From: Dictyostelium discoideum
Taxonomy: Eukaryota
NCBI GenBank assembly: GCA_000004695.1
Contig: CM000154.2
Coordinates: 256,001 to 320,000 of the forward strand
DNA: 64,000 bases
Reading direction: 5' to 3'
Part shown: piece after piece, positions 4,619-32,788 of the stretch
Position numbering within the stretch: the stretch's first letter is position 1
How the letters are laid out: the number at the start of each line of letters is the position of its first letter
Position numbers and translations under genes: made by a program
The notes under the pieces: model-generated
The model's input: only the letters and a program-made list of their open reading frames with translations
What the model was told of the DNA's origin: nothing
Database searches by the model: none

Positions 4619-6436
4619 TTAAATCTCTTCTTCATCACTATCACCAGAATAACTTAAAGCAGCAGATGGTCTTCTTTTAAATATTGAAACAGCTAAACCT
4701 AAAATAAAAGTTGCAACAATTACCCAAGTACCATAATAAAATACAATACCAAAGAAAGAAATACCTAATTGAATACGTGAAGTTAAAAGACCAATTTCTG
4801 ACATAATACAAAGATCTGTTGGTGCATTAATTGTACATGGTATAACTGAAGTACCATTCAAATAGACTTGAGCACCATACATAACATATCTTGGTGCTAA
4901 ATTTACAATTTGCATATTTAAACATAAATTACTTAACATTAATAACACTGATGCAAGTAATAAACCTTGTGGGAAAGTTTTACGATATCCAAATTCAAAC
5001 ATCTTTAAATAAAATAAAGAGTTAATAAAGATTCCATTATTTTTAAAATTAAAACAAATAAATAAATAAACTTACATTAATCCATAAAAATCTAATACCA
5101 ATTCTAGTGATACCAGATAAAGTACAAGAATAAATGAAAAATATTAAACCACCAATAATGATATAATCCAATGGGAAATATGGGGCCAATTTGGTGAGAA
5201 TGATATCGAATGGATTTTTCAATTGTGGATAAGTTGAAAGGAAACCGCAAGCCGAACCACAGACACTACTTGAGATTTTATCGACCAACGATAAGACGAT
5301 GGAGATAATGATCAATAAAGAGACCAAGATAAAGATGAAACCAAAAATGAATGCAAATGGTCTAAAGATGACTAAAATCTTTCTAAATCCTTTGTTTGAA
5401 TTATCCAATCTTTCTGAACGTTTTGATAATGCTCTTTCCTTACCCCTCAACAATGAGAGGGTGCTTTGTTCTTTTTCTGATAATGATTTGCCCGATGCAT
5501 ACTTTGATGAATAGAAACTACTCTTTTCTTTAGCTTTCCAAAGATCCTTATTGATGTCGGATTTATCGTCATCGGTTCTCTTCTTACCTTTGATCAAACC
5601 AATTGGGAATGCTGATAACCCATAGGATGTGTAGACCGCAAACACCAAGAAACCCAATACTGTCAAACATGAAATAGCAAAAAGTACCGATGATTCAATA
5701 GCATTTTGATTGAGTACTTCATCATTGATCCAATCCTTTACATTTTGATCATCGATTGGTTTAGATCCTGGTCTAACAAATGCACCAACAACCAATAATA
5801 TAATTGTAAACAATATGAAAAATATTGTAAATTTACATCCTGCATAAACTCTTGAACATGTTGGAATATTTTCATCATATTCTTCATGATAAAAATATGC
5901 AAATGGTACTAAAATTAGTGAAACTCCTAAAATTGATCCATATAATACTATAAAAAAAATAAAAAATAAAAAAAAAAAAATTTATAAAAATAAATTAATA
6001 TTTTGTGTGTGGTGTATTTTTTTTTTTTTAATAACAATAAAACTTACTATAATATAACATTTTAACACCTTCAGTTCTTTGAGAGATTGAATATGGTGAA
6101 ATTTGTGTACCATCACTATGTGACATTGTTGAAACATTTAAAATATCAACTGGAATAAGCATAACACATAAAAGTGTTAATGTAAGTCCAATTACTGAAA
6201 TGATTGTTGTAATTTTTCCACTTTCATGTTTATCTGAGTAATATTTAACTATAAAATAATTTAATGCAATTAACGTCTTTTTTTTTTTTTTAATAAAAAA
6301 AAAAATTAATATATGTTATTATTGTTTTTTTTAATTTATATATTTTTATGGTAGCAGTATTTGTAAAGTGATGAATTAAAAAAAAAAGATATTTACGAGA
6401 AGAACACCTGCAAATGCTATCCACCCTACTGAAATG
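4619..6436 (-). CDS. lmbd1: LMBR1-domain protein, orthologue of LMBD1 (lysosomal cobalamin transporter escort). Exons about: 6395..6436, 6049..6282, 5806..5945, 5075..5805, 4619..5002
   Basis: I recognise strong similarity to human LMBD1 from memory: PYFPLDYIIIGGLIFFIYSCTLSGITRIGIRFLWI against PLLQTVFPLDYILITIIIMYFIFTSMAGIRNIGIWFFWI; APRYVMYGAQVYL against APQYVMYGSQNYL; and an acidic C-terminal tail YSGDSDEEEI. The N-terminal exon reads MFPISVGWIAFAGVLLV and exon 2 contains LLCVMLIPVDILNVS (compare LPVDIFLVS). Minus-strand GTAAG donors at about 5070-5074, 6044-6048 and 6395. The ORF-track pieces 5049..5813 and 4619..5002 are parts of this gene. Confidence 0.6.
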
Positions 6437-7391: not shown

Positions 7392-7556
7392 ATGAAAAAC
7401 ATTTTTAAAGATAAAAATATTTATATTTTATCAGTTGAGAATGATCAAAGAGATAAATGTAAATCTTATTTAATTTCAAAAAAAGCTTTGGTTGAAAAAA
7501 GATTTTCAAAAAAGGTAAATAAAAATATTTTAATATTTAAAAAAACAATACATTTC

Positions 7557-7594
<38 letters not shown>

Positions 7595-10500
7595 AACATA
7601 TTTCCATTTTTTTATTTTTATTTTTTTAAAGGTGAATATTATAATAACAAGTGAAAAAACTATTTTGGAAAATAAATTTCCAGTTAATACTGCAACCAAA
7701 TTGGGTATAGAGATAATTGATTATGAAACTTTATCAAGAGATATTGAAAGATTTATTAGAAAAACTCAACCAACATCATCAAATGGTTCAACATCAACAA
7801 CAACAACAACAACAACAACAACACAAAAAGGTCAAATTGTATCATTTAAACCAACTTCATCAACCTCAACAACAACAAATGTAATTAATACAACAACAAC
7901 ATCAACAACATCAACAACAACAATTGTTGATCCAATTATATCATTAATAGTACCACCATCAGGTAGTAATAATGGATCATTTCAAATTGCAATATTTGGA
8001 ATTGGATTTTTAGCAGGAGCAGGATTTAGAATTAAAATTGGTAATGATAATGGTGGTGGTGGTGTTTTTGCAAGTAATTATGAATTTCATTCAAGTACAT
8101 CAGTTTTATGTACCATACCAAACTTAAATATTAAATGTGGTCAACAACCAATTTATGCAAGTAATGATGGTGGTAAAACTTTTGGATTTCCAATTCAATT
8201 TTTATTCTTTGACACATCAATCCATAGAATACCAACAGCAAGAGAACAAGATGGTATGGTATTAAAGAGTCAATTGGATAATTTAAAGAGAGCCATTTCA
8301 AATATTCAAACTATGGAATCAATTCTAATGAGACGTATTTCATTATTGAATGGTAATCATGATGATAGTAAATCAATTGAACAGATTTTCATTCAACAAC
8401 AAAATTTCATTGAAAGTGGTGCATCACAATTATTACTTGGTAATGGTGGTACCACCGATCAATTGTTACAAAGTCTTGAGGGTTCAGAATATTCAAGTAC
8501 AAACGATGATGGTGAAAACGATCAATCAGACGACGATGACGACAATGAAGATGATGATGATTTCGTTGAAAAGAATTCAAATCAAGTTAAAGAAGAATTT
8601 TCAGAGAGAGAAATTAAAATATTTATTTCATCACCATTTAAAGATATGCAATTGGATCGTGACCAAATTGTAAAGGTCGTAATACCAAGAATTAGAAAAC
8701 TTTGTATTGAAAGGGACATTGTATTGAGTTATGTCGATCTTAGATGGGGTGTAACAAGTAATCAATCTGAACAATCCACTGGTTTAAGTATGTGTTTGAA
8801 AGAATTGGAGAAATGTAATATTTTAATTGGTTTATTTGGTGAACGTTATGGTTGGTCATCGCAAGAGAAACAAGATCCAAAATCACAACAATTACTTCAA
8901 TCAACATTAGATCGTGCAATTCAAGATTTCCCATGGGTAAAGAATTATCGTGATTCAAGTATCACTGAAATTGAATTTCGTATGCTTTTGAACCAAAGAC
9001 AACAACAAAGAAATGGTTTCTTTTATTTCCGTGATCCATACTATCTCGAGGAGGTTAGTCAAATGGATAAAAATAATTTCGTTTCAGAAGGTCAAAGATC
9101 AAAAGAGAAACTTGAGAAACTTAAACAAGAAATCATTAAATCACCCTTTAAATCATCGGAATATCGTCGTCCAACCAATTTATCAGATGTACTCTATGAG
9201 GATTTAGAGAAATATATTGATAAAAAATATCCATCTGGTAATTGTGAATTAAAAGGTTTTGAAAAAGAACGTTTCTTACATTCAGTTTTCATTAAAAATT
9301 TAACAAAAATTTATATTACAAATGAAAATTATTTTATGGAAATTGATACTTATTTATCAGGAAGTGCTACTAGTAGTGGTAGTGGTAATAAAAGTATTTC
9401 AATTGGTTCAAGTATTAATAGTGGACTATTATCATCTTTAAAAAATAAACCAGTATTTTTAATTCAAGGTGAAAGTGGTTCAGGTAAATCATCATTAATT
9501 AGTAATTGGTTAAAACAACATAAAGAACAACATCCAGAAGATTTAGTTGTATCACATTGGATTGGTGCATCACCAAGTTCAAATAAATTTACATCAATTT
9601 TAATTAGAATTATGAATGAAATTAAAAATCAAATTGAAATTGATCAAAAGATTGCCAATGGTGGATCAAATTCCTCATCGTCATCGTCATCATCAATGTT
9701 TTCAACCACTTCAACATCTTCTGTATCATGGTTACCAGAAATACCAGATGAAACATTTGAAAGTGAAAAAATTGTTTCAGAATTCCCACAATTTTTACAA
9801 TATGTAATGTCACATCCATCATTGAATGGTAAGAGATTAGTATTGTTAATTGATGGTTTAGATAAATTAGATCCAAGAGAGAATAGTCAAGAGTTAATAT
9901 GGTTCCCAAGAAATTTCCCTCATAATGTAAAGGTTATTGTTTCATCGATTCAAGGTAGTAGACAAAGTGAGGTTCTAAAGAAGAGAGGATCTCATATTCT
10001 TTCGATTTTACCATTCACTGAAGCTGAAAGAAAATCAATGGTACGTTTATACCTTCAAAAATATGCAAAGAAATTATCAGATCAACAAGAGATTGCAATC
10101 GCTATTTCAAAATCAACAACAAATCCAAGATTCCTTCAATTACTTCTCGATGATATTTTGGTATTTGGTGATTACGAACGTTTAAATGACCGTATTAAAA
10201 CTTTACTTCGTGCAAAGAATACAAGTGAACTCTATGAAATCATTTTAGACCGTATTGAAAAAGATTATGATCCAAAAGCAAAGGGTTTAGTAAGTGAATT
10301 CTTAAAATACATTTGGGCCGGTAGAAGAGGTGTTGAAATGTCTATGCTTTCAACATTACTCTTGAAAAAGAATATCGATCCAGCTGAATGGGGTTCATTA
10401 TTGGTATTGATGGAAGCTTATATCACTTCTTCATCGGGTGTTATCTCTTTCCTTAATGATGATATTTCAAAAGCTGTCGAAAAGAAGTATATTACAACTC

Positions 10501-12500
10501 CAAAGATTGGTATTGAAATTCATACCAATTTAGCAGAGGCTTTCGAACAATCTGGTGACTTAAATGAAAGAAAGGTTGAGGAATATCCTTATCAATTATT
10601 AAAGAGTGAAAATTGGGAATCATTAAAAAATACCTTAACCAATCTTTACGTATTCGATAAACTCTATACACCAAATCATAAGGTTGATCTCATCAATTAT
10701 TGGAATGTATTGGAGAAACAAACTAAACCACCAAAGAATGCTGCAGAAAGAGATGATCCAATACCATACAATTGTTCAAATGAATTTAAGGCAATCATTT
10801 CACGTTCATTCATTCAAGCATCTGGTTTGGTAATTTCCGATGTTTGGTTTAGAGTTGCATCGTTCCTTGAAGAGTTATCTCAATTTGATGGTGCCGAAGT
10901 ACTCTACAATAAATGTCGTGAACTTTATATTAACAATTCTCAAAATATTGAAGCTGCAAAAGTTGATCGTGCAATGGGTAGAATGTATCTAACAATGGGC
11001 CAAAATGATAAATCCGATAGTAAATTCAGATTGGCACTTTCAATCTACACAAAAGAAAGAGGTCAAGAAGATATTGAAGTTGCAATCACTCTTAATCTCT
11101 TGGGTACTCTTGCCACTAATAGATGTAAATTCGATGAAGCTAAACAAATTCTCAATCAAGCTATGAACATTTGTGAATCCAAATATGAAAGCAACGTTTT
11201 ACTCATTGCTGATATTGCCTATAGTTTGGGTTCAGTTTGTTTCGTTGAACCAAATCGTAAATTAGAGGTTGCTGAAGCTTACTTTGCAAGATCATTAGAA
11301 TTAACTGAATCAAAAGTTGGTGATATGGATGTTGCTTATGCTCGTATTTTAACTCGTTTAGGTTCATTGAATATTGAAAAGGATACCTATGCCGATGCAG
11401 AGGCATTCTTTAAAGCTGCCCTTAAAATCTATGAAGCTAGATTGGGTATTGATCATTCTAGAGTTTCTCAAATTCTTAGACATATGATTTCCCTCTATGA
11501 GGTTCAAGAAAACTATAAAATGGCTGAACAATGTTGTATCAGAGCTTTGGCAATCACAAAGAAAATCTATGGTAACTCTCATAATCTTGTATCGGCCACT
11601 CAAATCCGTCAAGCTTTATTATATAATTCAATGAATAGAAAACAAGATTGTCTCAATCTATTGAATGAAGTTAAAGTTACAAGAGAGAAAGAATTTGGTC
11701 CTGATCATAAACAAGTTAAACATATTATTGATTTAATTAAAGAAATTGATAAACCAATCGTACCAAAAGCTCCACCTCCACCACCTCCATCATCATCATC
11801 GCCATCTGCTTCATCACTTTTAATGAAATCAATTACTTCATTACCAATTGTAAATGGTCAAGCAGTTCTATCTGTTCCAAAACCACCAGTTTCCAGAGGA
11901 CCAAATGGTATCCCAATCCCACCACCACCTCCACCAACAATTAAATTGTACACAAACATGGTATCACTTCAAAGTGTTATGAAACAAAATGTTGGAAGAA
12001 TTCCAGTTGCTCAACCAACTTCATTCAATTCTCCAGTTCAACCACCTTCACCTCGTACTCAACAAGCTATTCAACAAGGTCAACAACAACGTCAACAAGT
12101 TCAACAACAACAACAACAAGTTCAACAACAAATGTCTCAAAAAGTTTCATCACTACAACAACAACCACAACAACAACAACAACAACAACCATCACAAGGT
12201 TATGGTAATCGTCAAAATACTCCATTATTCCAACAACCAATTTTCCAACAACAGTTCCAACAAAATCGTATACAACAACCACAACAACAACCACAACAAC
12301 AAGCTTATGTTGGTGATATGTTGGCTCAATTTGATCAACAAAAACTTAAACGTGTTCAAAATGCAAATGATCGTAGTGGTGCTTCTCAAATCGTTGAAAA
12401 TTTAATTGGTAAAAAGAAATGTAGTAAACCAGTTTCACTTGTAAATAAAGGTTATATGGAAGAATCAAATCAAATAGATATGGGTGCTCTATTTGATTAA
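7392..12500 (+). CDS. STAND-class NTPase: N-terminal BRCT-like segment, IPT/TIG domain, acidic linker, DUF4062, NACHT P-loop NTPase, kinesin-light-chain-type TPR array, poly-Pro, polyQ, C-terminal WH2-like motif. 2 exons: 7392..7514, 7632..12500
   Basis: Motifs read directly from the translation:
- IPT/TIG-like beta-sandwich: PIISLIVPPSGSNNGSFQIAIFGIGF...VLCTIPN...
- DUF4062 start motif: KIFISSPFKDMQLDRD
- Walker A: FLIQGESGSGKSSLISNWL
- NACHT-type Walker B: RLVLLIDGLDKLD, followed by KVIVSSIQGSR
- More than 8 TPR-like helices from about residue 1130 to 1420
- PPPPPPSSSSP and PPPPPPTIKLY
- (Q)n
- DMLAQFDQQKLKRVQNA
A candidate intron 7515..7631 (GTAAAT...AAAG, 117 nt) keeps the frame; the ORF track reads through it. 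Confidence 0.7.
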
Positions 12501-12579
12501 TAAAAAAAAAACCTTTTCTAATTATTGTAAAATAAAATTTAAACTTAATTTTAAATTCATATTAGAGTTATTATTATTA

Positions 12580-12631
<52 letters not shown>

Positions 12632-12782
12632 TTATATCATTTGATTTATTACTACTAGTTACGCCATTTGACAAAGCATTTTCATAGATTGAACTTTTTG
12701 ATAGTTCCATCAAGGCCTGAAATAAAAGTTTTGTTTCATAACTCTACTATCCATAAAATATATATATGTTTATTATTTCAAA

Positions 12783-12790
12783 TTTATTAC

Positions 12791-12884
<94 letters not shown>

Positions 12885-12886
12885 TT
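12783..12886. repeat. (TTA)n microsatellite, about 34 units; a shorter (TTA)n lies at 12574..12630
   Basis: Perfect trinucleotide repeats in the 3' flank of the STAND gene. They generate the spurious poly-L, poly-Y and poly-N ORFs in the track. Confidence 0.9.
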
Positions 12887-12910
12887 GTAATTTTGACCAT
12901 AGATGAACAA

Positions 12911-12920
12911 GATTCGAACC
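12911..12920 (-). promoter_or_regulatory. Extra B-box (exB, GGTTCGAATC) about 52 bp downstream of tRNA-Met
   Basis: The revcomp of gattcgaacc matches the pol III B-box consensus GGTTCGANTCC. External B boxes downstream of tRNA genes are a known Dictyostelium feature. Confidence 0.45.
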
Positions 12921-12971
12921 AATGACTCTGGATACGAAGTTCAGGAGTTTGAATTTCAGCAAAAAAAAAAT

Positions 12972-13043
12972 GTCAAGTCAGAGGATCGAACTCTGGACCT
13001 TAGGATTATGAGACCTACGCTCTACCAACTGAGCCAACCTGAC
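12972..13043 (-). tRNA. tRNA-Met (anticodon CAT), elongator type
   Basis: Minus-strand 72-nt cloverleaf: GTCAGGT T GGCTCAGTTGGTAGAGC G TAGGT CTCATAA TCCTA AGGTC CAGAG TTCGATC CTCTG ACTTGAC. The acceptor stem pairs 7/7 (one G-U), the anticodon loop is CTCATAA and the T-loop is TTCGATC. G1:C72 and the TTCG T-loop argue for elongator rather than initiator. Confidence 0.85.
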
Positions 13044-13071
13044 ATGTTGATGTTTTTGAAAAAAATTTGCA

Positions 13072-19302: not shown

Positions 19303-22300
19303 ATGGGTAATAATAATGAAGATGGTTTAAATAATAACAATAACAATAACAATAATATTGAAAATAGAAAAGTTAAATTAAATAATACAGGTGATGAAAT
19401 CCCATTTTCGATGGGTAATGCATCATCATCACCATCTGCACCTCCACCATACCAACCTTCAATACAACCACTATATCAACCACCAACACAAAATCAATTC
19501 TTACCACAATATCAACAACAACAACAACAACAGCAACAACATTACCAACCACAATATCAACCAATAAACAATATGAGTTATCAACCAATACAACAACAAC
19601 AGCAACAACAAAGTAATTTCCCACCAACACAATATCAACCAAATAATATGAATTATATGGCATCACCACAACCATTATTACAACCTCAAATTATGACTAT
19701 ACAACCAACAACATTTTCAAATTCTCAAACTACAACTACAACAACTTTATCAAATCAACCACTTCAAACTTTATATATTCCAATTGATTCAGAATTTTAT
19801 CCATCTTATACACCACAATTGTAAGTTTTTTATTATTTTTTTTTTAATTTTTTTTTTTTTAATTCTTTTTTTTTTATTTTTTTTTATTCCAAAATTATTT
19901 ATTAATTAATTAATTTTAAAATAGTTTATATAAAAAAGATGATGAAAGAACTTATGGTATTGGTACATCATTAAAAGATTCATCATTTAATGAAATGATA
20001 AATAATAAAATTACAAATATATTTATAAAAACAAGAATGATACCACAAGTTAATGATGATTTATTGAATACAATTGTTAATTGTAAAAATTTAGAACATT
20101 TAAATTTATCAGGATGTGTTCAATTTAGTTCAACATTATTCTCTAAACAAATTTCAAGATTGAATCAATTGAAATCATTGAATTTAAATGGTTGTCAACA
20201 AATTACCAATGATAATCTTTGCAAGATATCAAATTCGTGTAAACATTTAGAAGAGATTCATTTGAATGGTTGTAATAGAGTCGATGATCAGGGTATAGTA
20301 GATTTGGTTAGTAAATGTAAAAAGATTAAAATCCTATCAATGAGTGGTTTAAATCTTTTAACCGATAGATCAATGACAATGATTTGTCAAAAATTACAAG
20401 ATCTTCAATCACTTTGTATCAACCATATTCAATGGTTCACTGAGAAGTCTCTAATGTTGATTGGTAAAAAGTTTAAGAATTCCCTACGTTGTTTCTACGC
20501 TTATAATACATTGATCACTGATAGCGTACTCTCGGATATAGCAATCAATTGTTCATCACAATTATCGGTGATTAATGTCTCCAAATGTAAAAATATTACA
20601 AACACTTCAATAGCCACCATTGCGATCAATTGTGGTAAAATGCTAACTAAATTGTTTTTACAAAATATTGAATGTCTTTCAATTCATAGTATTTCATTGT
20701 TGGGTAAATACTGCACACAACTTACAACACTACGTTTGGATGGTTGCTTAAATCTAATGGATGATTCAATTCAATCATTACAACCATTGGAAAGGCTAAA
20801 GATTTTAAACCTTTCAAATCTACCAAAGATTAATGAAATCTCATTGATAAGAATTTTACCATCATTAAAAGACTTGGAGGAATTATATCTCTATGAGAAT
20901 CCACGTTTCTCTGATTTAACCATTAAACAATTATCAATTAGCAATCCAAGAATCACTTCATTACGTGTTGATAAAACAGTGTTCGTATCAGATGCTTCAA
21001 TTATACCATTTACCAATAGTGTCAGCTATTTAAGAGTTTTGAATCTATCTGGTTTACAATCGATTCATGACTCTAGTATTATGGCATTGGCTACCTCTCA
21101 AAAATTCATTCAAAAACTTTATCTATCAGGTTGTAAATCCATTGGCAATGATTCATTGTTTGCAATTACTGGTCATATGTCATCCTCTTTGGAAGTATTG
21201 AAAATTGATGATTCTCATCAATTCACAGAGGAGGCTCTATCATCAATTAGTCTATTAAAAGGTTTAAAAATTTTATCAATTTCTCATTGTGTCCATACAA
21301 CTAATAATACCATTGATTTGATTGGCTATAATTGTAGAGAGTTGGAACAATTGTACATGTGTAAATTACCAATGGTCAATGATGCAGTACTACCAGCATT
21401 ATTATCAAATCTTTGTAAATTAAAAATCCTTAGAATCGATGGTTGTGTAAATATGACCGATCGTTCATTGACTGGCATTCGTTTCCTCAATCGTTTATGT
21501 TTGGAAGTTTTCAATTGTTCCGATAGTAGAATTGGTTGTGGTGGTTTGTTAACAATTCTTCAACAATCTTCAATTCGTGAACTTTATGCATGGAATTGTG
21601 ATTATATTACTGATGATATCTTAAAAACCATTGCAAACGATGCTTCATCCATTCAAATCCTACGTTTGGATGGTTGTAAAAATATTAGTGACAAAGGTGT
21701 ACGTACATTAATTCAAAGATGTCCACTTTTACGTATTCTAAACATTTCCAATACAAAGAGTTCCGATGAAACCTTGCAAACCGTCGCTGGCTATTGCAAA
21801 CGTTTAAAGAAACTCTATGCAAATAATTGTACTAAAATCACCTCGTCCGGTATTTCAGCGATCGCCTATCAATGTAATGAATTGACCATTTTGAATGCTT
21901 CACGTTGTGCAAATATTACCGATAATGCAATCATTGATATCTCTTTGAAATGTAAACTTTTGAAACGTTTAATACTAAACTATTGTCCAAAGATTACCAG
22001 TCAAGCAATCATCAGAGTATCAGTCGGTTGTCAAATGTTAAAAGAGATCTCTTTGAAAGGTTGTACCAATTTGGATGAAATGGGTGTTCTCTCACTTTCT
22101 ACCTATTGCAAACGTTTACAATATATCGATTTCACTGATTGTCACTTGGTAACCGATCTATCGATACTTGGTATTGGTAGAGAATGTTTACTTTTGAAAT
22201 CAGTCATTCTCACTGGTACCGCTGCTCAAGATAATGGTGTCATTGAAATTTGTGTACGTTCAAATGTAAATATTTTAACTTTAGATCTGGAAAGAACTAG

Positions 22301-22445
22301 AATTTCTGATCGTGCTGTTCAAATCATTGCTCAAATGTGTCCTGCTATTAAAAATTTAAATCTTTTAAATACCCAAATTACTCCTCAATCAATTGATTCT
22401 GTAAAACATACTTGTTTCCTTTTAACAAATTTACAATCTAAATAA
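19303..22445 (+). CDS. Protein with an N-terminal Q/P/Y-rich low-complexity domain and a C-terminal array of cysteine-containing leucine-rich repeats (FBXL/AMN1-type LRR_cc). 2 exons: 19303..19820, 19925..22445
   Basis: ORF 19303..19824 ends in caattgTAA, but the TAA overlaps a GTAAGT donor at 19821. The acceptor aaaatag at 19922-19924 puts exon 2 at 19925. Exon 1 ends in phase 2 (tt) and the join tt+t gives F, then runs in frame into ORF 19995..22445 (LYKKDDERTYGIG...MINNKITN...). The LRR consensus LxxLxLxGCxxITDxxL recurs about 20 times. No F-box was seen upstream of the LRRs. Confidence 0.6.
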
Positions 22446-22610: not shown

Positions 22611-22683
22611 TGCTCGATGCAGGGATCGAACCTGCGACCGTGGCGTTATTAGCACCACGCTCTGCCGACTGAGCTAATCGAGC
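22611..22683 (-). tRNA. tRNA-Ile (anticodon AAT)
   Basis: Minus strand GCTCGAT TA GCTCAGTCGGCAGAGC G TGGTG CTAATAA CGCCA CGGTC GCAGG TTCGATC CCTGC ATCGAGC A. The 7-bp acceptor stem is perfect and the anticodon loop is CTAATAA. I recognise it as nearly identical to metazoan tRNA-Ile-AAT. Confidence 0.9.
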
Positions 22684-26087: not shown

Positions 26088-26350
26088 TGTAATAAAGCTT
26101 GTTAGCTTTATAAATATATAATTAATAATTATATAATTGAATAATACTTTGTTATCTTTATTTAATATTAGTTTATATTTATAATATTCAATATTGTTTA
26201 TAAAATTATTCTTTAGTATTTATATTATTTATAATGAGTTGACAGTATTATTATTATTATTATTATATTATTTAAATGTGTGTCAACTATAATTAGTAAT
26301 GTAATATGCATATTTAATATCTATTAATTTTATAGAGTAACTTTATTACA
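26088..26350 (-). repeat. LTR (263 bp) of a Ty3/gypsy-type retrotransposon, with an adjacent polypurine tract
   Basis: On the minus strand it starts TGTAATAAAG and ends CTTTATTACA, a 10-bp terminal inverted repeat with TG...CA ends. The PPT AAAAGGGGGGG lies immediately 5' at 26351..26365 and the internal ORF ends inside the LTR start. Confidence 0.65.
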
Positions 26351-26947
26351 TATCCCCCCCTTTTAGTTGAAAAAAATTTTTCAATCTTTTAATATAAAAC
26401 ACATCATGATTTTTAATATTATCCAATACTAATTTGAATTTTAAATCGCTAACTCTCTCGTGTACTTTGAAAAGACCTTCCCAAGATTTATTGAGCTTTA
26501 CTGGACCAACAGTGGATTGTAAATAGACATAATCTCCTACTTGAATATTTGAACGAGAAACTTTTTTATTAATTTGTGATAATTGGTCTTTACCAAGATT
26601 ATCCTTAATGAGACAAGGACGTTTGAGGTTATTATTTACAATTTGGGCGAAATTATGAGCAAAATCTAATCTTGATAAATTTGTACATGGATTTCTTATT
26701 AATGGTTGAATTGAGGTTATTTGTGATTTAATTATTGAATTCTCTGTTTGATTTAATGATATTGATTTTAATGGTAAATTCGATGTTATTGGTGAATCTA
26801 TTGGTTCTTGGAATAAGAATTCTGGAATATCGTAATCTATTGGTAGTTGTTCTTCAATAGTTGGATACGATTTGATTGATAGTATATGATGAGAATTAAA
26901 ATTTTCAATTAAATGATCAGTATCTGTTAATAATTCTGATTTTGATG

Positions 26948-26978
<31 letters not shown>

Positions 26979-28010
26979 TGAATAATCAGATACTGTTTTA
27001 AATATAGTTTGTATACATGGTTGGGTTTCTTTAGATATTAATTTGGTACCAACATTGAATTCAAGATTCTTAATGATCATTTCTTTAAAATCAATGACTA
27101 AATTTAATCCAATTATTGTATCAATGCCAAATATACAATCAATTGATGTATCATTATCTTTAACAACATTAACTTTAACTCTAGCGAATGCTTTACCTAA
27201 TTTAATTGTTGTGTTACTTATTCCAATGATTTTGATTTGATTATTTGATGCTGATTTAACAGAATATTGTTCATTTTCAATCTTTAATTTTAACTTTTTA
27301 GCAATACTTTCCCAAACAATAGTAAGTGATGAACCAGTATCAATCAAACCTCTAACATTTTTATTATTTATTAATAAAGCTGCATTCATACTATCTATTC
27401 CAATTGAATTAATTGTACTATTATTGACCATTGTAATTGAATTAGTTCTATTATTGTAATTGTTATTATTATTTTTATCTTTTGACCAACACTCTTGAAT
27501 TACATGACCTTTCTTTTTGCAATATTTACAAAATTTTGTGATTGAATTTACTTGATTTTGTGGTGCTTTATAAGGGGATGATTGTGGTGACATTTGTGGT
27601 GATCGATTATAATATTGATTTTTAAAAATTGGTGTTGAAATTTCTTCAGATTCAATTGATTGTTGTTCGTTTTGAGATGTAACATATTGAGGGGATGTTG
27701 CAGAATAACCAGAACCCGAACCTAGATATCTTTGATTACCAAATTCTTGCAACGTCTTTGCAACTAATTGACCAGTGTACATTGATCTACCTTTGATACG
27801 AATTGAACCATCTTCACAAGACTTTGCAATATCTATTGCTCTTTTTAATGATTTTGGTGCACATTTTGTAATTTTAATACCCAATTCAGTACCAACAGCT
27901 GAATAAAACAATTGTATTTTAAACTTTTCTGAAATATCAACTGCTGAACATTTTGATAGAAATTTACCAATTAATATATCTAATGTATTGTATTTATATT
28001 CTCCCAACTT
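26346..28010 (-). mobile_element. Internally deleted LTR-retrotransposon coding region (gag with CCHC knuckle, aspartic protease, then integrase C-terminal domain), DGLT-A-like
   Basis: - Gag: CKYCKKKGHVIQEC.
- Protease: LIDTGSSLTIVW.
- No RT, RNase H or integrase core.
- The C-terminus IQVGDYVYLQSTVGPVKLNKSWEGLFKVHERVSDLKFKLVLDNIKNHDVFYIKRLK matches the GPY/F-type integrase C-terminal module of Ty3/gypsy elements.
- The upstream side runs into the assembly gap (28011..28111) directly abutting tRNA-Gly. tRNA-upstream targeting is the hallmark of DGLT-A.
- The ORF-track entry 26346..28238 is artefactually extended through the gap and the tRNA. Confidence 0.55.
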
Positions 28011-28111
28011 GNNNNNNNNNNNNNNNNNNNNNNNNNNNNNNNNNNNNNNNNNNNNNNNNNNNNNNNNNNNNNNNNNNNNNNNNNNNNNNNNNNNNNNNNN
28101 NNNNNNNNNNN
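28011..28111. other. Assembly gap (100 N); a single n also at 30552
   Basis: A run of N characters. The true size is unknown; it probably hides the 5' LTR of the adjacent element. Confidence 0.95.
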
Positions 28112-28120
28112 ATATAAAAA

Positions 28121-28191
28121 GCGTATGTGGTCTAGTGGTATGATGCATCCCTGCCACGGATGCGAACTGGGTTCGATTCCCAGCATACGCA
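28121..28191 (+). tRNA. tRNA-Gly (anticodon GCC)
   Basis: GCGTATG TG GTCTAGTGGTATGAT G CATCC CTGCCAC GGATG CGAA CTGGG TTCGATT CCCAG CATACGC A. The acceptor stem is perfect, the anticodon loop is CTGCCAC and the variable loop is 4 nt, as in Gly tRNAs. A candidate exB, GGTTCAATTCC, lies at 28232..28242. Confidence 0.85.
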
Positions 28192-28598
28192 TAATTTTCC
28201 ATTTGTTCAATTTGTTCGATTATAGAACGTAGGTTCAATTCCCTAAAAAATCATGAGTCTGTATTTATATACAGAGTTGCACATCTCTAGAAAAACAATT
28301 TTATTTTTAATAATATAAAAAAACCTCTCAAACAAAGTCAAACCAGTAAAAAAAAAACCAAAAACAATCAAACAACCCAAACACTATTCAAAAATCAATT
28401 AAAAAAACAAATAATCAACAAACCATAATAAATGGAAACAATGTGGGTAGTTCAAACATTCCACTACAAAAATCCAGCCAAATTCCAATTTAAAAAAAAA
28501 AAATTTAAGAAAAAAGATACAATCGAGTTTTTTTTTTTTTTTTTTTAGTAATAAATTAAATAATTTTATTTTATTTTTATTTTATTTTTTTTTATTTT

Positions 28599-31500
28599 TT
28601 ATCTTTTCATATGATTAATAAATCTTAAAGCTAAATAACCAAGAAAAGTGTAAGCGCAGAAATAACCACCAAGGATTATTAAATTATAAAATTGACGATC
28701 GTAAGCGTCGTTCATACCATATTGCAAAAGCATAGTATCACCACTTTGAATGGCACAATATTTTTTAGTGAAATTTGTTCCGGCAATAGGAATTATACTA
28801 TATTGATCTTCTTCACAAAAAAAAGGTTCACCTTTAAGTTCAGTGATACTTAGAGTTTCCAAGCCATATTTAGAAAAGACCAAATAATGCATCCAAATCC
28901 AACCTCTTGGAATATTGTTTACTGGAATGAAGAAACCACCGAAAAGACCCAAGAAATTCAAGCCAACACCAGAGACCAAAATCGCAATTGGAATGGTAGG
29001 TAGAGTGAGTGCGAATAAAGTTGCCAAACTATCGTAACACATGATAACCAAAAGATAAACACTGAGAGAGAAGAAAAACTTCCAACCATGATCGCCCAAT
29101 GTTAATCCAGTTAAAAAGAACATTGGTATCCAATAGGAGAAAGCAGTTAAAACCATCATTGGTAAATCAGTGATAACACTTGCCAAAATATAAAGATGGG
29201 CTGGATAAGTACCAGCTGATGATTCTCTGTAATAGACTGAACGATCTTCGACGATGGTTGGTACTTTACCAATGGAAGCCATACCACCAAAGAGGAAACC
29301 CAAGAAAACCAAAGCGATTCTATTACGTGCACCAGTTTGATCATTATCCAATCTAAGAAAGAGAGTACCAATTACAATTGCAGGAATGAATGAACGTAAG
29401 AATCTAAGTAGAATAGTTTGTGGACGACGAACATGATTTAACCAACCTCTTTTAACCAAACTATGAAGTTGAGCTGTTGCAGGAGCAGAGTATTTACCTT
29501 TATATTTTGGAACGTCAACACCCTCTGGTACGATAGTTTTTGATTCCAATCTTTGAATTGAATTTGAATAATGAATGGATGATTTAAAGTAATCACTTGC
29601 ACTTTGACCTGTTGATGGTGGATGTTCAGCGATTTCCAAAATGAAATCAGCTGGATTTCTACCATGTTCATATTGATAACCTGCACTTGTGAAATGTTGA
29701 ATAACGGTTGAACTATTGTCACCAGTATCACCAAAATAAATTACTTTACCCTTGTCCAAGAGTAAAAGTTGATCGAATTTCTCAAAGATTTCTTGTGATG
29801 GTTGATGAATTGTACAAACTACAGTTCTACCAGATTCTGCAATCTTTTTAACACAATTCATAACTTTTAAAGCGGCTGAAGAATCTAAACCAGAGGTAGG
29901 TTCATCAAGGAAAATCAAATGAGGATCTGAAGCCAACTCAATACCAATACTAACTTTTTTACGATTTGCCAATGAAATACCCAATGTTGGATTTGGACCA
30001 ATGGTTGTATTTTGCATTTTAGTTAGAGAGAGAACTGATAAAATCTCATCGATTAATTTAACTCTATCCTTTTGAAGATAAGATGATGGTAAACGACAAT
30101 TTGCACTAAATTCAATTGCTTCACGAACTGTTAAATTTGCAGAAAGAATATCTTGTTGTTCAACATAACCAGTGAAACGAGTGATATTCATATCCTTTAC
30201 CAACTGACCATTGATTCTAATGTCACCAGTGATTGTACCAACATTTTTTCTCTTTGCCAATACATCCATTAATGTTGATTTACCAGCACCTGAAGGACCC
30301 ATTAAAGCGCACATACCTGGAACAATGAAACCATTTACATCCTTTAGTAACTCTAAGGTTACTTTTTCCTTTTTACCAGTTTCTTTATTATCTTTAACAG
30401 AGGGTACAACATAATTTAAATTTTGAAAAGTCATATAACAACCATTCCATTTATGTTTAACCTCTTTATCCTTTTTATCTTTTTTCTCTTTCTTTTTCTT
30501 TAATTTAATTTGTCTTGGTGGTTTTTTATTTTCAAATCTAATATATTTAACNCCTAAAAAGAAGATGAAAAAGAATGTACAAACGAAACCTAAAATGATT
30601 ACAATATCAACCCAACGCATATAAGAATTATCAGAGAAACCAAATTGATTTAAAAAATCACTACCAGTACTATATTGACAAATTTGATTACCTTGATAAC
30701 CACCATCGGCATACGATACATTTAATAGAGGATAATTTGATGGTGGAATCTTTTCCATTGGTGAACAATGAAATTCCAAACCATACAATTCATTCGATGA
30801 TACCATATCGATTACATATCTCAATGGTGATAATGCATTTAACCAAATCCACCAACCTGGAATTTGTAAACGACTAATCATATAACCTGACATAATCATA
30901 AATAATACAACTATCGCTGGACAAATTAAACTTGCCAATAATTGAGCCGATGTGAAAGCTGATGTAACTTGAAAAATACCTTGAGCAATTAAATTGGTCA
31001 ATGCCATACCCAATATGAAAACTATGAAATTATCAACACGTGCTTGAAAACCTGCAATCCAATAACAACAACTTGAAAATAATATTGCCTCTATCAATGA
31101 GATTGGAATTTTAGTGATTACCAATGATAAAAAGTATGGGAAATTTCTATAATACTTTGAGTCCTTTTGGTCATCGAAAATGCCTCTTAATGTGAAAAAC
31201 TCTTCAACACTACCAATCGTTGTCCAAATATGTAATACCATTGCAAAGTAAACTAATCCAAATCTATTTCTAGCATCAGCTTGTGTGAACCCCATCTTAA
31301 CAAATAATGATCCGATTACACAACCCATAAAAATGGCTTGAAAGAAACGTACTGCATATTGCATTTTCATAATTTTCATAACTTTAATATGACGTGCCAA
31401 TAAATGTTTTAATTCATAACGTACTGATGATTTACCATTATCACCAGTTTCTAATTTCTTTATTAAATGATCTGAAACTTTAATATCACTTGGTATTAAT

Positions 31501-32788
31501 TGTTGCATTGATTGTATTGTTTTTTGATTTAATTCAGATTCTTTAAATAATTTAACCAAATCCATCTTTTCAACATTTCCACTATCTGCACCACCTAATA
31601 ATAAACTTTTGCTTTCGTCATCACCACCATCTTTTGATGATAATTCAATTTTATCAGTTATCATATATTTTGAAGGTTCAACTGAAACCTCTTGCATAAA
31701 TTCTGCCAATGGTTGGTTTGGTAATGGTGCTAATCCAATCGATGAGAAATAAGGTAATAAATTATTTAATTCTCCAAAGTAAATTAAATTACCACCTTCA
31801 CCTAAAATTAAAATGTCATCGAATAAATTGGTTAATTCAACCGATGGTTGTAATAATGATACCATAACCGATGCTTTTGCCTCTTTGGCAATGGTTTTAA
31901 CTTTTGATATTACATTATAGGATGTTGCTGAATCCAAGCCTGTCGAAGGTTCATCCATTAATATTAAATTTGGTGATCTTTTTGTAAATTCATTAGCAAT
32001 TGTAACTCTTCTCTTTTGACCACCTGAAATACCTCTAAAAAATTGATTACCAATGATAGTATTTGATGTATGTGAAAGTCCAAGTTGATCCAATACCAAA
32101 TCGACACGTTCACTTTGTTCCTCTTGTGATACATTCTCTCCCATATTACATTTTGCACTAAATTCCAATGTCTCTCTAACTGTCAACAATGCAATATGTC
32201 TATCATCTTGTGAAACGAAAATTGTATCACGTTGATGAGTCGTCTCATCAACTTCATGATTATTAAATTTTAATTCACCTTCAATTTTACCTTTACCTAA
32301 TCTATTACCTAAAACCTTTAATAATAAACTTTTACCTGCTCCTGGTATACCCATTAATAATATCATACGACCAGGCTTTTTTTTTATTTTAATAATAAAA
32401 AAATTAAAAAAAAAAAAAATAAAAAAAAAAAAAATAAAAAAAAATATTAGTATATTAATTTTGTTTAGAGAAAAAAAAAAATAATAATAAAAATAAAAAT
32501 AAAAAAAAATAAAAAAAACTTACTTTCATTGTAAATGAAATATTATTTAATAAATATAATTTACTAAGTTCTTCACTTTCACCTTTTTTAATACTTTTTG
32601 GAATATAATATGATATGTTGTTTGCAGAAACAAACATACCAGTTTTATTTTGAGTTACACGTTGTTTAATATGATTTGAAAGATCATAATTTATATCAAT
32701 TTCAATTGAATCTATATGACTACTAGATGCTGGTGTTGGGTTTTGATATATTATTTTATTATTATCGTCATCATTATTATTAATATCG

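Follow-up and report, generated by a model that had tools for sequence, protein, structure and literature searches.

Gene structure and domain architecture

The stretch of DNA analysed here (hereafter the window, 64,000 nucleotides of Dictyostelium discoideum contig CM000154.2, positions 256,001 to 320,000, within which all positions below are counted) has a Dictyostelium-like base composition, its GC content being mostly 15-35%, and carries at 7392..12500 (+) the gene DDB_G0287407, the subject of this work. Its product is an STAND (signal transduction ATPase with numerous domains) protein of the NACHT clade with a TIR-like DUF4062 domain, whose predicted active site corresponds to that of the human NADase TEP1. 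The gene has already been annotated. Unspliced, the open reading frame (ORF) 7392..12500 (+) would encode 1702 aa; after removal of the GT..AG intron 7515..7631 (117 nt, GTAAAT...TTAAAG), which is in frame and has no stops, the product comprises 1663 aa and is identical (100% identity, 100% length) to the D. discoideum AX4 protein XP_637293.1, UniProt Q54KD0, named in the database "TPR repeat-containing protein DDB_G0287407". The first-pass annotation of the window, made from the sequence alone, had proposed exactly this: one gene at 7392-12500 with an intron and a product of about 1.66k aa. The proposal is borne out by the single frame and by the matching intron of D. purpureum, and the same annotation had called amoebozoan NACHT-TPR proteins essentially uncharacterised; in line with this, no experimental study of DDB_G0287407 was found in the literature searched, where the gene is named only in a paper on an unrelated subject and the accession Q54KD0 is not mentioned.

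The D. purpureum intron follows the same codon 41 and must be spliced, because its length of 148 nt is not a multiple of three. The Pfam BRCT match is continuous over the exon junction, as are the transcript-derived orthologues of other amoebae. Comparative data, rather than cDNA, confirm the predicted intron. As to the lack of stops in it, only 28 of 5000 base shuffles had none either, and in its other two frames the intron has 4 and 2 of them; retention of the intron would add a 39-aa K/F-rich stretch inside the BRCT domain. The in-frame status is not conserved and is probably due to chance, given the 148 nt in D. purpureum. Natural isolates of D. discoideum have protein versions of 1649-1664 aa, the length differences being presumably located in homopolymer or low-complexity linkers. 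No transmembrane-like segment was found in the protein. The features of the gene are as follows.

7392..7514 (+), exon 1, codons 1-41, first half of the BRCT domain (ATG at 7392, GT donor at 7515; spliced product equal to Q54KD0)
7515..7631 (+), intron, 117 nt (GTAAAT...TTAAAG; same-position intron in D. purpureum)
7632..12500 (+), exon 2, codons 42-1663 and stop codon, one uninterrupted ORF
7398..7772 (+), BRCT domain, residues 3-88, the DNA span including the intron (Pfam, AlphaFold2, Foldseek)
7929..8216 (+), IPT/TIG Ig-like domain, residues 141-236 (Pfam, AlphaFold2, Foldseek)
8238..8414 (+), long helix or coiled coil, residues 244-302; after it, an acidic linker rich in D/E, residues 303-366 (AlphaFold2, conservation)
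8607..9143 (+), DUF4062/TeTIR TIR-like domain, residues 367-545, with the E489 codon at 8973-8975 (Pfam, phmmer)
9429..10088 (+), NACHT P-loop NTPase domain, residues 641-860 (Pfam NACHT, AAA_16 and NPHP3_N above cut-offs)
9468-9491 (+), Walker A GESGSGKS, residues 654-661 (read from the sequence)
9843-9872 (+), Walker B LLIDGLDKLD, LLIDGLD being residues 779-785 (read from the sequence)
10089..10778 (+), helical/winged-helix STAND arm, residues 861-1090 (family conservation)
10779..11753 (+), solenoid of tetratricopeptide repeats (TPR), residues 1091-1415 (Pfam, AlphaFold2, Foldseek)
11754..11948 (+), proline-rich segment with APPPPPP at 1421-1427 and IPPPPPP at 1470-1476 (read from the sequence)
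11937-12010 (+), second tail motif [RN]PSLQxxM[KR]xN, residues 1477-1501, dictyostelid-conserved, after the second poly-Pro tract
12009..12299 (+), Q-rich low-complexity spacer, residues 1501-1597, predicted disordered
12300..12416 (+), WH2-like motif GDMLAQFDQQKLKRVQNANDRSGASQIVENLIG, residues 1598-1636 (hhalign; conserved in Dictyostelia, Diphylleia and Pelomyxa)
12417..12497 (+), C-terminal end, in which dictyostelids share the motif Y-M-E-E-S-x-x-I-D-M-G-A-L-F-D (alignment)

The profile searches which the first-pass annotation had suggested (NACHT, DUF4062, TIG, TPR_12 and BRCT) all gave matches, that of TIG in the isolated segment only, and the structure prediction suggested along with them, made with AlphaFold2 (AF2), yielded a BRCT fold, an Ig-like TIG domain and a TPR solenoid.

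TIR-like effector domain

DUF4062 (PF13271) is matched by Pfam at residues 370-455 (E 3e-14), and a phmmer search aligned 176 residues (367-542) of this region with the crystal structure of the TIR-like domain of human TEP1 (11gz_A, E 6e-23); no other match between the protein and a solved structure is as good. The domain had initially been read as no more than a motif heading many STAND proteins; this reading has to be abandoned in view of preprints of 2026, which show that DUF4062 is a TIR-like NADase effector domain. According to Osinski et al., it operates in human TEP1, with E1008 as the catalytic residue, and in a bacterial system of abortive infection; Ibarra-Chavez et al. described a second bacterial family of DUF4062 defence proteins. 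Once activated, the bacterial proteins deplete NAD+ (preprints). Hornebeck et al. (10.64898/2026.09.21.753143) named the domain TeTIR and described TEP1, NWD1, NWD2, TTC41 and NPHP3 as the human TeTIR-NACHT proteins, with WD40 or TPR repeats; NPHP3 has no catalytic Glu and is inactive, and TTC41 retains this residue. Mutagenesis in the same work showed that F902, R914, R942, C959, R976 and E1008 of TEP1 are essential, that the bulky S905E substitution abolishes the activity, that R908A keeps a considerable part of it, and that W943A leads to a modest loss. Glu-dependent NAD+ hydrolysis was demonstrated in preprints for the DUF4062 domains of TEP1 and of a D. discoideum protein designated "ddTEP1" (10.64898/2026.09.21.753143). 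The latter is probably not DDB_G0287407 but Q54CB5, the D. discoideum TEP1 orthologue identified in the vault proximity proteome.

The residues of TEP1 were transferred by adding 893 to the chain index of 11gz_A, which placed all nine named residues on the expected letters. The correspondence with DDB_G0287407 is as follows.

TEP1 F902, here F372
TEP1 S905, here S375
TEP1 R908, here K378
TEP1 R914, here R384
TEP1 R942-W943, here R412-W413
TEP1 C959, here C429
TEP1 R976, here R446
TEP1 E1008 (catalytic Glu), here E489

Thus F372, S375, R384, R412, W413, C429, R446 and E489 are identical to their TEP1 counterparts, and all of them are invariant in the 22-member family alignment. Among the positions tested in TEP1 only R908 differs, being replaced by Lys; R954 of the TEP1 BB loop is Thr in DDB_G0287407. 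No other domain of the protein is as well conserved as DUF4062, whose identity is 68-79% in Dictyostelia and 47-54% when other Amoebozoa and Diphylleia are compared. Judging from this alignment, the catalytic set of the TIR-like NADase domain is fully intact, and the invariant site together with the highest conservation in the protein makes up the signature of a conserved enzyme, unlike the situation in NPHP3.

NACHT core and TPR solenoid

By its profile matches, Walker motifs and tripartite layout DDB_G0287407 is a NACHT-clade STAND NTPase: the DUF4062 effector (367-545) is followed by NACHT (641-860) with the helical arm (861-1090) and by a TPR repeat sensor (1091-1415). Pfam NACHT scored 35.8-39.6 bits (cut-off 26.7) over residues 647-851, and NB-ARC only 14.4; NPHP3_N reached 27.5 bits (cut-off 24.8) with the isolated segment. 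G654, G657, G659, the Walker A lysine K660, S661 and the Walker B aspartate D782 are invariant in the 22 relatives. Between the two Walker motifs the dictyostelid proteins have a specific S/T-rich insertion (SSSSSSSS, STTSTSS; approximately residues 708-750, window 9630-9760), which is absent from the non-dictyostelid relatives. The helical arm shows 32-44% identity outside Dictyostelia; NPHP3_hel matches it in eight of the 22 relatives, DDB_G0287407 itself remaining under the cut-off.

The solenoid was matched by TPR_NPHP3 (108.7 bits, cut-off 100) and, in five stretches, by TPR_12 (E 6e-27). In the AF2 model of residues 1100-1663 it consists of 15 helices, or about 7.5 TPRs, at residues 1109-1414, with a predicted local distance difference test (pLDDT) score of 85-98, and Foldseek found it to resemble the peptide-binding TPRs of LGN/Pins, the kinesin light chains KLC1/2 and APPBP2. 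Across Dictyostelia the TPR region is 65-69% identical. DUF4062 upstream of NACHT and TPRs of the KLC/NPHP3 type, as the first reading of the sequence had it, were found by Pfam, and this core is as in human NPHP3, TTC41, TEP1 and NWD1/2. Pfam matches to LRR (leucine-rich repeats), CARD, PYD and BIR were not found, and the repeats are TPRs, so the protein does not fall under the definition of the animal NLRs (nucleotide-binding, leucine-rich repeat receptors). There were no Pfam matches to TROVE, vWA or WD40 in the protein either.

C-terminal region and actin fusions

The two tracts of six prolines in the tail (1422-1427 and 1471-1476), where the first reading had already noted poly-Pro, are read directly from the sequence and are conserved in the relatives; we infer that they could be ligands of the profilin type. 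As for the WH2-like motif, the references for its comparison were WH2s checked against chains of the PDB (WIP 2a41_C, MIM 2d1k_C, N-WASP 3m3n_W and Spire 3mn7_S). When an alignment of eight tails of the family was compared with these verified WH2s by hhalign, P was 4.2e-5 and the probability 70%. The alignment pairs DMLAQF-DQQKLKRVQNANDRSG with ALLSDISKGKKLKKTV-TNDRSA and takes in the LKK...NDRS extension, which is characteristic of WIP and MIM. The WH2 score (21.3) was reached by none of 300 column shuffles (null 7.5 +/- 1.8, maximum 16.6), and the reversed profile scored 10.1. A scan of 14 tails with Pfam WH2 gave two matches, both sub-threshold, in D. purpureum (E 0.018, 15.1 bits) and in the environmental protein P0016 (E 0.0056, 16.8 bits). 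The putative WH2-like tail claimed earlier thus finds some support in the profile comparison, although it misses the Pfam WH2 threshold. Neither the tail profile nor the D. purpureum motif alone had a PDB match at E <= 10.

Three other assignments in the tail were considered and discarded. The conserved RPSLQxxM[KR] motif was rejected as a second WH2 (P 0.41, 69 of 150 shuffles scoring equally). A WASP-like VCA (verprolin homology, central, acidic) tail was dropped upon by-eye comparison with the N-WASP VCA, the C-terminal end having few acidic residues and no Trp. Autoinhibition by the acidic/aromatic C-terminal motif placed in the TPR groove is unsupported, as AF2 shows no docking of the tail.

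Two relatives carry an actin domain in this part of the protein. In a full-length Trinity ORF of Diphylleia rotans a poly-Pro tract, the WH2-like ILSELQDGIRLNKQVNIADRS and another poly-Pro tract are followed by actin (about residues 1330-1863 of P0017), and in Balamuthia mandrillaris (JAVKOQ020000593.1, L001 8700-9052) a complete actin domain comes directly after the TPRs. Compared with Acanthamoeba actin, the fused actins show 69% and 84% identity, and between themselves 64%; being divergent paralogues, they are not chimeras with a housekeeping actin gene. In both of them the Ser of the phosphate-binding loop DSGDG is replaced by Ile/Val and the Pro of MFPG by Glu. A single ancient fusion and two independent ones are indistinguishable from the nine shared derived sites alone, and the 150 best matches in a set of 1.84 billion representative proteins contained no further actin fusion. 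The fusions in Balamuthia and Diphylleia support a putative link of the family to actin.

The tail is missing in some members (P0015, P0022). The C-termini of P0013, P0014, P0016, P0019 (truncated at the motif), P0020 and P0021 contain poly-Pro, a WH2-like helix (in environmental proteins, for example, TRNALLDQIRH or RGDLLEAIKNFGK) and a motif GWW[KG]QNY, which is absent from dictyostelids.

N-terminal region

Pfam BRCT matched residues 3-73 with profile positions 4-72 of 78 (E 1.7e-6, 28.6 bits, cut-off 21.3). In the AF2 model of residues 1-367, for which 11 orthologues were used, residues 9-86 have the beta-alpha-beta-beta-alpha-beta-alpha topology of BRCT (pLDDT 78-90), and Foldseek matched this N-terminal domain with the BRCT of Dbf4. 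Hence the BRCT-like N-terminus of the first-pass annotation is indeed a BRCT, but not only the second half of the fold, as was thought there, since the Pfam match spans nearly the entire profile. BRCT was matched in 15 of the 22 relatives (best E 4e-10). The dictyostelid domain is divergent, with 12-23% identity to non-dictyostelids, and the latter retain the GG...VTH motifs of BRCT. That it might bind a phosphoprotein or ADP-ribose is pure speculation.

The TIG domain was recognised by Pfam only when its segment was scanned in isolation (E 1.3e-4, 22.3 bits, cut-off 20.9), and was matched in 17 of the 22 relatives (best E 9.5e-9). AF2 predicts an Ig-like beta-sandwich at residues 143-234 (pLDDT 80-89), to which, according to Foldseek, the IPT/TIG of EBF1 is closest (template modelling score, TM, 0.80; root-mean-square deviation 2.1), along with the dimerisation domains of NFAT and NF-kB and the DBB of BCAP. 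Pfam and Foldseek therefore agree with the IPT/TIG assignment made at first sight; its description as an extracellular-type fold does not hold, the nearest folds being intracellular dimerisation domains. Helices predicted at 244-280 and 287-302 belong to a region conserved in the relatives, and acidic runs occur at residues 341-351. In the model BRCT, sandwich and helix are set apart by disordered S/T-rich and acidic linkers. Since the Pfam matches are widespread over the 22 members, the head composed of BRCT, TIG and helix is ancestral to the clade.

Distribution of the family

Searches recovered one match per species in the dictyostelids D. citrinum, D. firmibasis, D. purpureum, Tieghemostelium, Polysphondylium, Synstelium and Cavenderia. 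Other members come from Pelomyxa (two copies), Balamuthia, Cavostelium, Rhizamoeba, Pyxidicula, Flabellula, the non-amoebozoan Diphylleia rotans and environmental contigs. The numbers of the 22 members with Pfam matches are as follows.

DUF4062, 22
NACHT, 22
TPR_NPHP3, 22
NPHP3_N, 19
TIG, 17
BRCT, 15
PF25022 (the NPHP3 version of the TIR-like domain), 10
NPHP3_hel, 8

The whole architecture is conserved across Amoebozoa and in Diphylleia. Its apparent single copy, strong conservation and lack of expansion are unlike the usual arms-race repertoire of NLRs. Two EukProt models have additional regions, an N-terminal Rab-like GTPase in P0007 and a Cdc20-like WD40 region in P0008, which most likely stem from adjacent genes that the predictor has joined.

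An exhaustive phmmer search with the helical arm and TPRs against 1.84 billion representative proteins returned 1071 proteins at E <= 1e-30, with one dictyostelid representative. The next relatives are bacterial and metagenomic proteins sharing the DUF4062-NACHT-TPR core (E 1e-116 to 1e-93, about 27% identity over about 62% of the query); they include proteins of WOR-3 and Bacteroidales metagenome-assembled genomes and score above animal TEP1 (about 1e-42). No named animal protein was found among the 10 matches of this search that were looked up. Animal NPHP3 and TTC41 were not among the matches; profile searches with NACHT plus arm and with TeTIR by itself gave six fragments each. Defence-system profiles of PADLOC had no significant match, and NCBIfam gave nothing meaningful.

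Genomic surroundings

An LMBR1-like ORF lies upstream of DDB_G0287407 on the opposite strand (window 5049-5813, -); in D. purpureum its counterpart (L002 6951-7919, +) is downstream of the orthologue on the same strand. This neighbourhood is conserved yet rearranged between the two species. The other neighbours are listed below.

12970-13044 (-), tRNA-Met (CAT), some 470 bp 3' of the stop codon
15707-18055 (-), ORF of an FNIP-repeat protein
19995-22445 (+), ORF of an LRR protein
22611-22683 (-), tRNA-Ile (AAT)
26346-28238 (-), ORF of a protein with a retroviral-type or DDI1-like aspartyl protease domain
28121-28191 (+), tRNA-Gly (GCC), inside the mechanical ORF 26346-28238 (-)
28599-32366 (-), ORF of an ABCG-type transporter

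The 5' part of the ORF 26346-28238 (-) is unlikely to be coding, because the tRNA-Gly falls within it. No evident functional cluster or defence context was found among the LMBR1-like, FNIP-repeat, LRR, aspartyl protease and ABCG neighbours. Just 3' of the gene (12522-12962) there are long trinucleotide microsatellites, which on either strand read as ORFs of poly-N, poly-Y, poly-L or poly-I and represent the intergenic low complexity typical of Dictyostelium.

Proposed mechanism and alternative explanations

By analogy with TEP1, Apaf-1, plant TNLs (TIR-type NLRs), SARM1 and the bacterial DUF4062 defence proteins, we consider it fairly probable that DDB_G0287407 is a cytosolic STAND (NACHT) switch of the DUF4062/TeTIR-NACHT-TPR class, in which oligomerisation activates NAD+ hydrolysis. 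The TPR solenoid would keep NACHT closed until a conserved ligand, probably a peptide, is bound; nucleotide exchange in NACHT would then drive oligomerisation, and the clustered TIR-like domains would hydrolyse NAD+. In other proteins, units like this TIG domain with its adjacent helix dimerise. The poly-Pro and WH2-like tail could tie the complex to profilin and G-actin, providing either for its localisation or for a second, actin-assembly output.

Several observations weigh against this proposal. Full-length human NWD1, NWD2 and NPHP3, as well as three isolated prokaryotic TeTIR domains, were inactive in vitro (preprints), so that an intact active site is no guarantee of measurable activity. 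As to the tail, Pfam WH2 (cut-off 23.1 bits) has no match in DDB_G0287407, the AF2 model is below pLDDT 50 throughout this region, short helices being predicted only at that confidence, and the Balamuthia fusion hangs on one predicted intron (GTACGT...polyY-TAG, with good signals), without the splicing of which the TPR ORF would end 13 codons on.

The inactivity of the three full-length human proteins would also be in line with a non-enzymatic, NPHP3-like scaffold, in which the TIR-like domain serves as an interaction surface and BRCT, TIG, TPR and the proline-rich parts organise a signalling or cytoskeletal complex. The protein is rich in protein-protein interaction modules, and all four Pfam models named after NPHP3 match the family. 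We nevertheless regard a scaffold as unlikely: the catalytic Glu, lost in NPHP3, and the other residues essential in TEP1 are invariant across the sampled Amoebozoa and Diphylleia, and the top conservation of DUF4062 is the pattern expected from purifying selection on an enzyme. It is slightly more doubtful that the protein is an innate immune receptor, in line with the amoebal innate-surveillance role suggested in the first-pass annotation, whose TPRs would sense a microbial or viral product and bring about NAD+ depletion or death of the infected amoeba. The bacterial DUF4062 systems Swarozyc and Evangelion are abortive-infection defences, the TIR-STAND-repeat layout parallels that of plant TNLs, and the authors of the TEP1 study propose an immune role for TEP1; however, each dictyostelid species yielded one orthologue with no lineage-specific expansion, the degree of TPR identity across Dictyostelia suggests a conserved and probably endogenous ligand, and neither the defence-system profiles nor the genomic neighbours point to defence.

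In having poly-Pro and then, at its very C-terminal end, a WH2-like motif, the tail is laid out like actin assembly factors, and one might suppose that DDB_G0287407 is a ligand-gated actin nucleator, where oligomerisation clusters the poly-Pro/WH2 tails or the fused actins into a seed and NAD+ hydrolysis is secondary. The likeness to the WH2 of WIP and MIM (LKK-x3-NDRS), as assessed by hhalign and the shuffles, the sub-threshold Pfam matches in relatives and the divergent actin domains after the TPRs in two distant lineages speak for it. On the other hand, the WH2 call concerns a single sub-threshold motif, the second conserved motif of the tail being not WH2-like; the search of representative proteins added no actin fusion to the two described, of which that of Balamuthia needs the predicted intron; and P0015 and P0022 do without the tail. 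A nucleator in this sense seems to us distinctly improbable. Slightly more improbable still, though worth mentioning, are two coupled outputs, with oligomerisation both switching on the NADase and clustering the profilin/G-actin-binding tails or the attached actins into a filament-nucleating seed. If true, this would tie NAD+/ADP-ribose signalling to local cytoskeletal remodelling, e.g., at phagosomes or damage sites, in a dual-output STAND machine, not described for any NLR-like protein. Finally, the modules might come from separate genes joined in an erroneous gene model, as has clearly happened to the relatives P0007 (small GTPase) and P0008 (WD40). We find this extremely improbable, given the single open frame 7632-12500, the intron conserved in D. 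purpureum and the transcripts from Cavostelium, Rhizamoeba, Pyxidicula and Diphylleia whose full-length ORFs have this architecture too.

As regards the proposed NADase switch, the NADase nature of DUF4062/TeTIR was recognised only in 2026. A haploid, tractable amoeba, in which the gene is apparently single-copy and the catalytic site intact, makes the activation logic of TeTIR-NACHT proteins directly testable. The spread of the family over Amoebozoa and Diphylleia, together with the close bacterial homologues of its core, bears on the entry of TIR-STAND immunity-type modules into eukaryotes. What appears to be new is the head of BRCT, TIG and coiled coil, the poly-Pro/WH2-like tail with actin fusions in the relatives, and the apparently single-copy spread over Amoebozoa. 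The BRCT-TIG head is not described in the TeTIR/DUF4062 papers searched, the word BRCT being absent from those searched for it, and a link between an STAND NADase and the actin cytoskeleton, to which the tail and the fusions in two lineages point, is not mentioned in the searchable literature.

Comparison with known systems

In the bacterial systems Swarozyc and Evangelion the same effector domain leads, upon activation, to NAD+ depletion; their DUF4062 is paired with other auxiliary regions, not with NACHT and TPRs, and the eukaryotic head and tail are absent. Plant TNLs and Apaf-1 are functional analogues in having an effector activated by oligomerisation, but they use NB-ARC instead of NACHT, LRR or WD40 sensors and, in the effector, a canonical TIR; moreover, plant TNLs form large diversifying gene families, whereas DDB_G0287407 is apparently single-copy and conserved.

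As for the terminal regions, the TIG domain here is structurally closest to the IPT/TIG of EBF1, and in EBF a TIG plus helix acts as a dimeriser. In BCAP and BANK1 a TIR domain precedes the TIG-like dimeriser DBB; here the order is reversed, TIG and helix being followed by the TIR-like domain. The TIGs of EBF1, NFAT, NF-kB and BCAP are intracellular and dimerising; the likeness to them is one of fold only, with no sequence homology, and dimerisation here is putative. The tail resembles WIP, MIM and N-WASP in that the WH2-like motif is C-terminal to poly-Pro and, as in the WASP family, near the C-terminus; it differs from them in the absence of the conserved Gly of the I-x-x-G turn and of an acidic Arp2/3-binding end with Trp, and actin binding is here putative.

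TEP1 has the same TIR-like domain just upstream of NACHT, with the catalytic Glu, the RWG loop, the Cys and both essential Arg identical. Its N-terminal extension is a different one, consisting of TROVE and vWA; it ends in WD40 repeats and resides in vaults, in contrast to the BRCT-TIG-coiled coil head, TPRs and actin-type tail described here. DDB_G0287407 is not the TEP1 orthologue, because TROVE, vWA and WD40 are absent from it and D. discoideum has Q54CB5. NPHP3 and TTC41 share the entire order of the core, from the TIR-like domain through NACHT and the helical arm to the KLC-type TPRs; neither the BRCT/TIG head nor the WH2-like tail has been described in them. NPHP3 belongs to the inversin compartment of cilia, organelles that D. 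discoideum does not have. The catalytic Glu, whose absence defines NPHP3, is present and invariant here as E489, and in retaining it DDB_G0287407 is like TTC41. By its domain content the protein is a member of the TeTIR/DUF4062-NACHT STAND class, closest to NPHP3 and TTC41 in its repeat type and helical arm, and closest to TEP1 in its effector domain.

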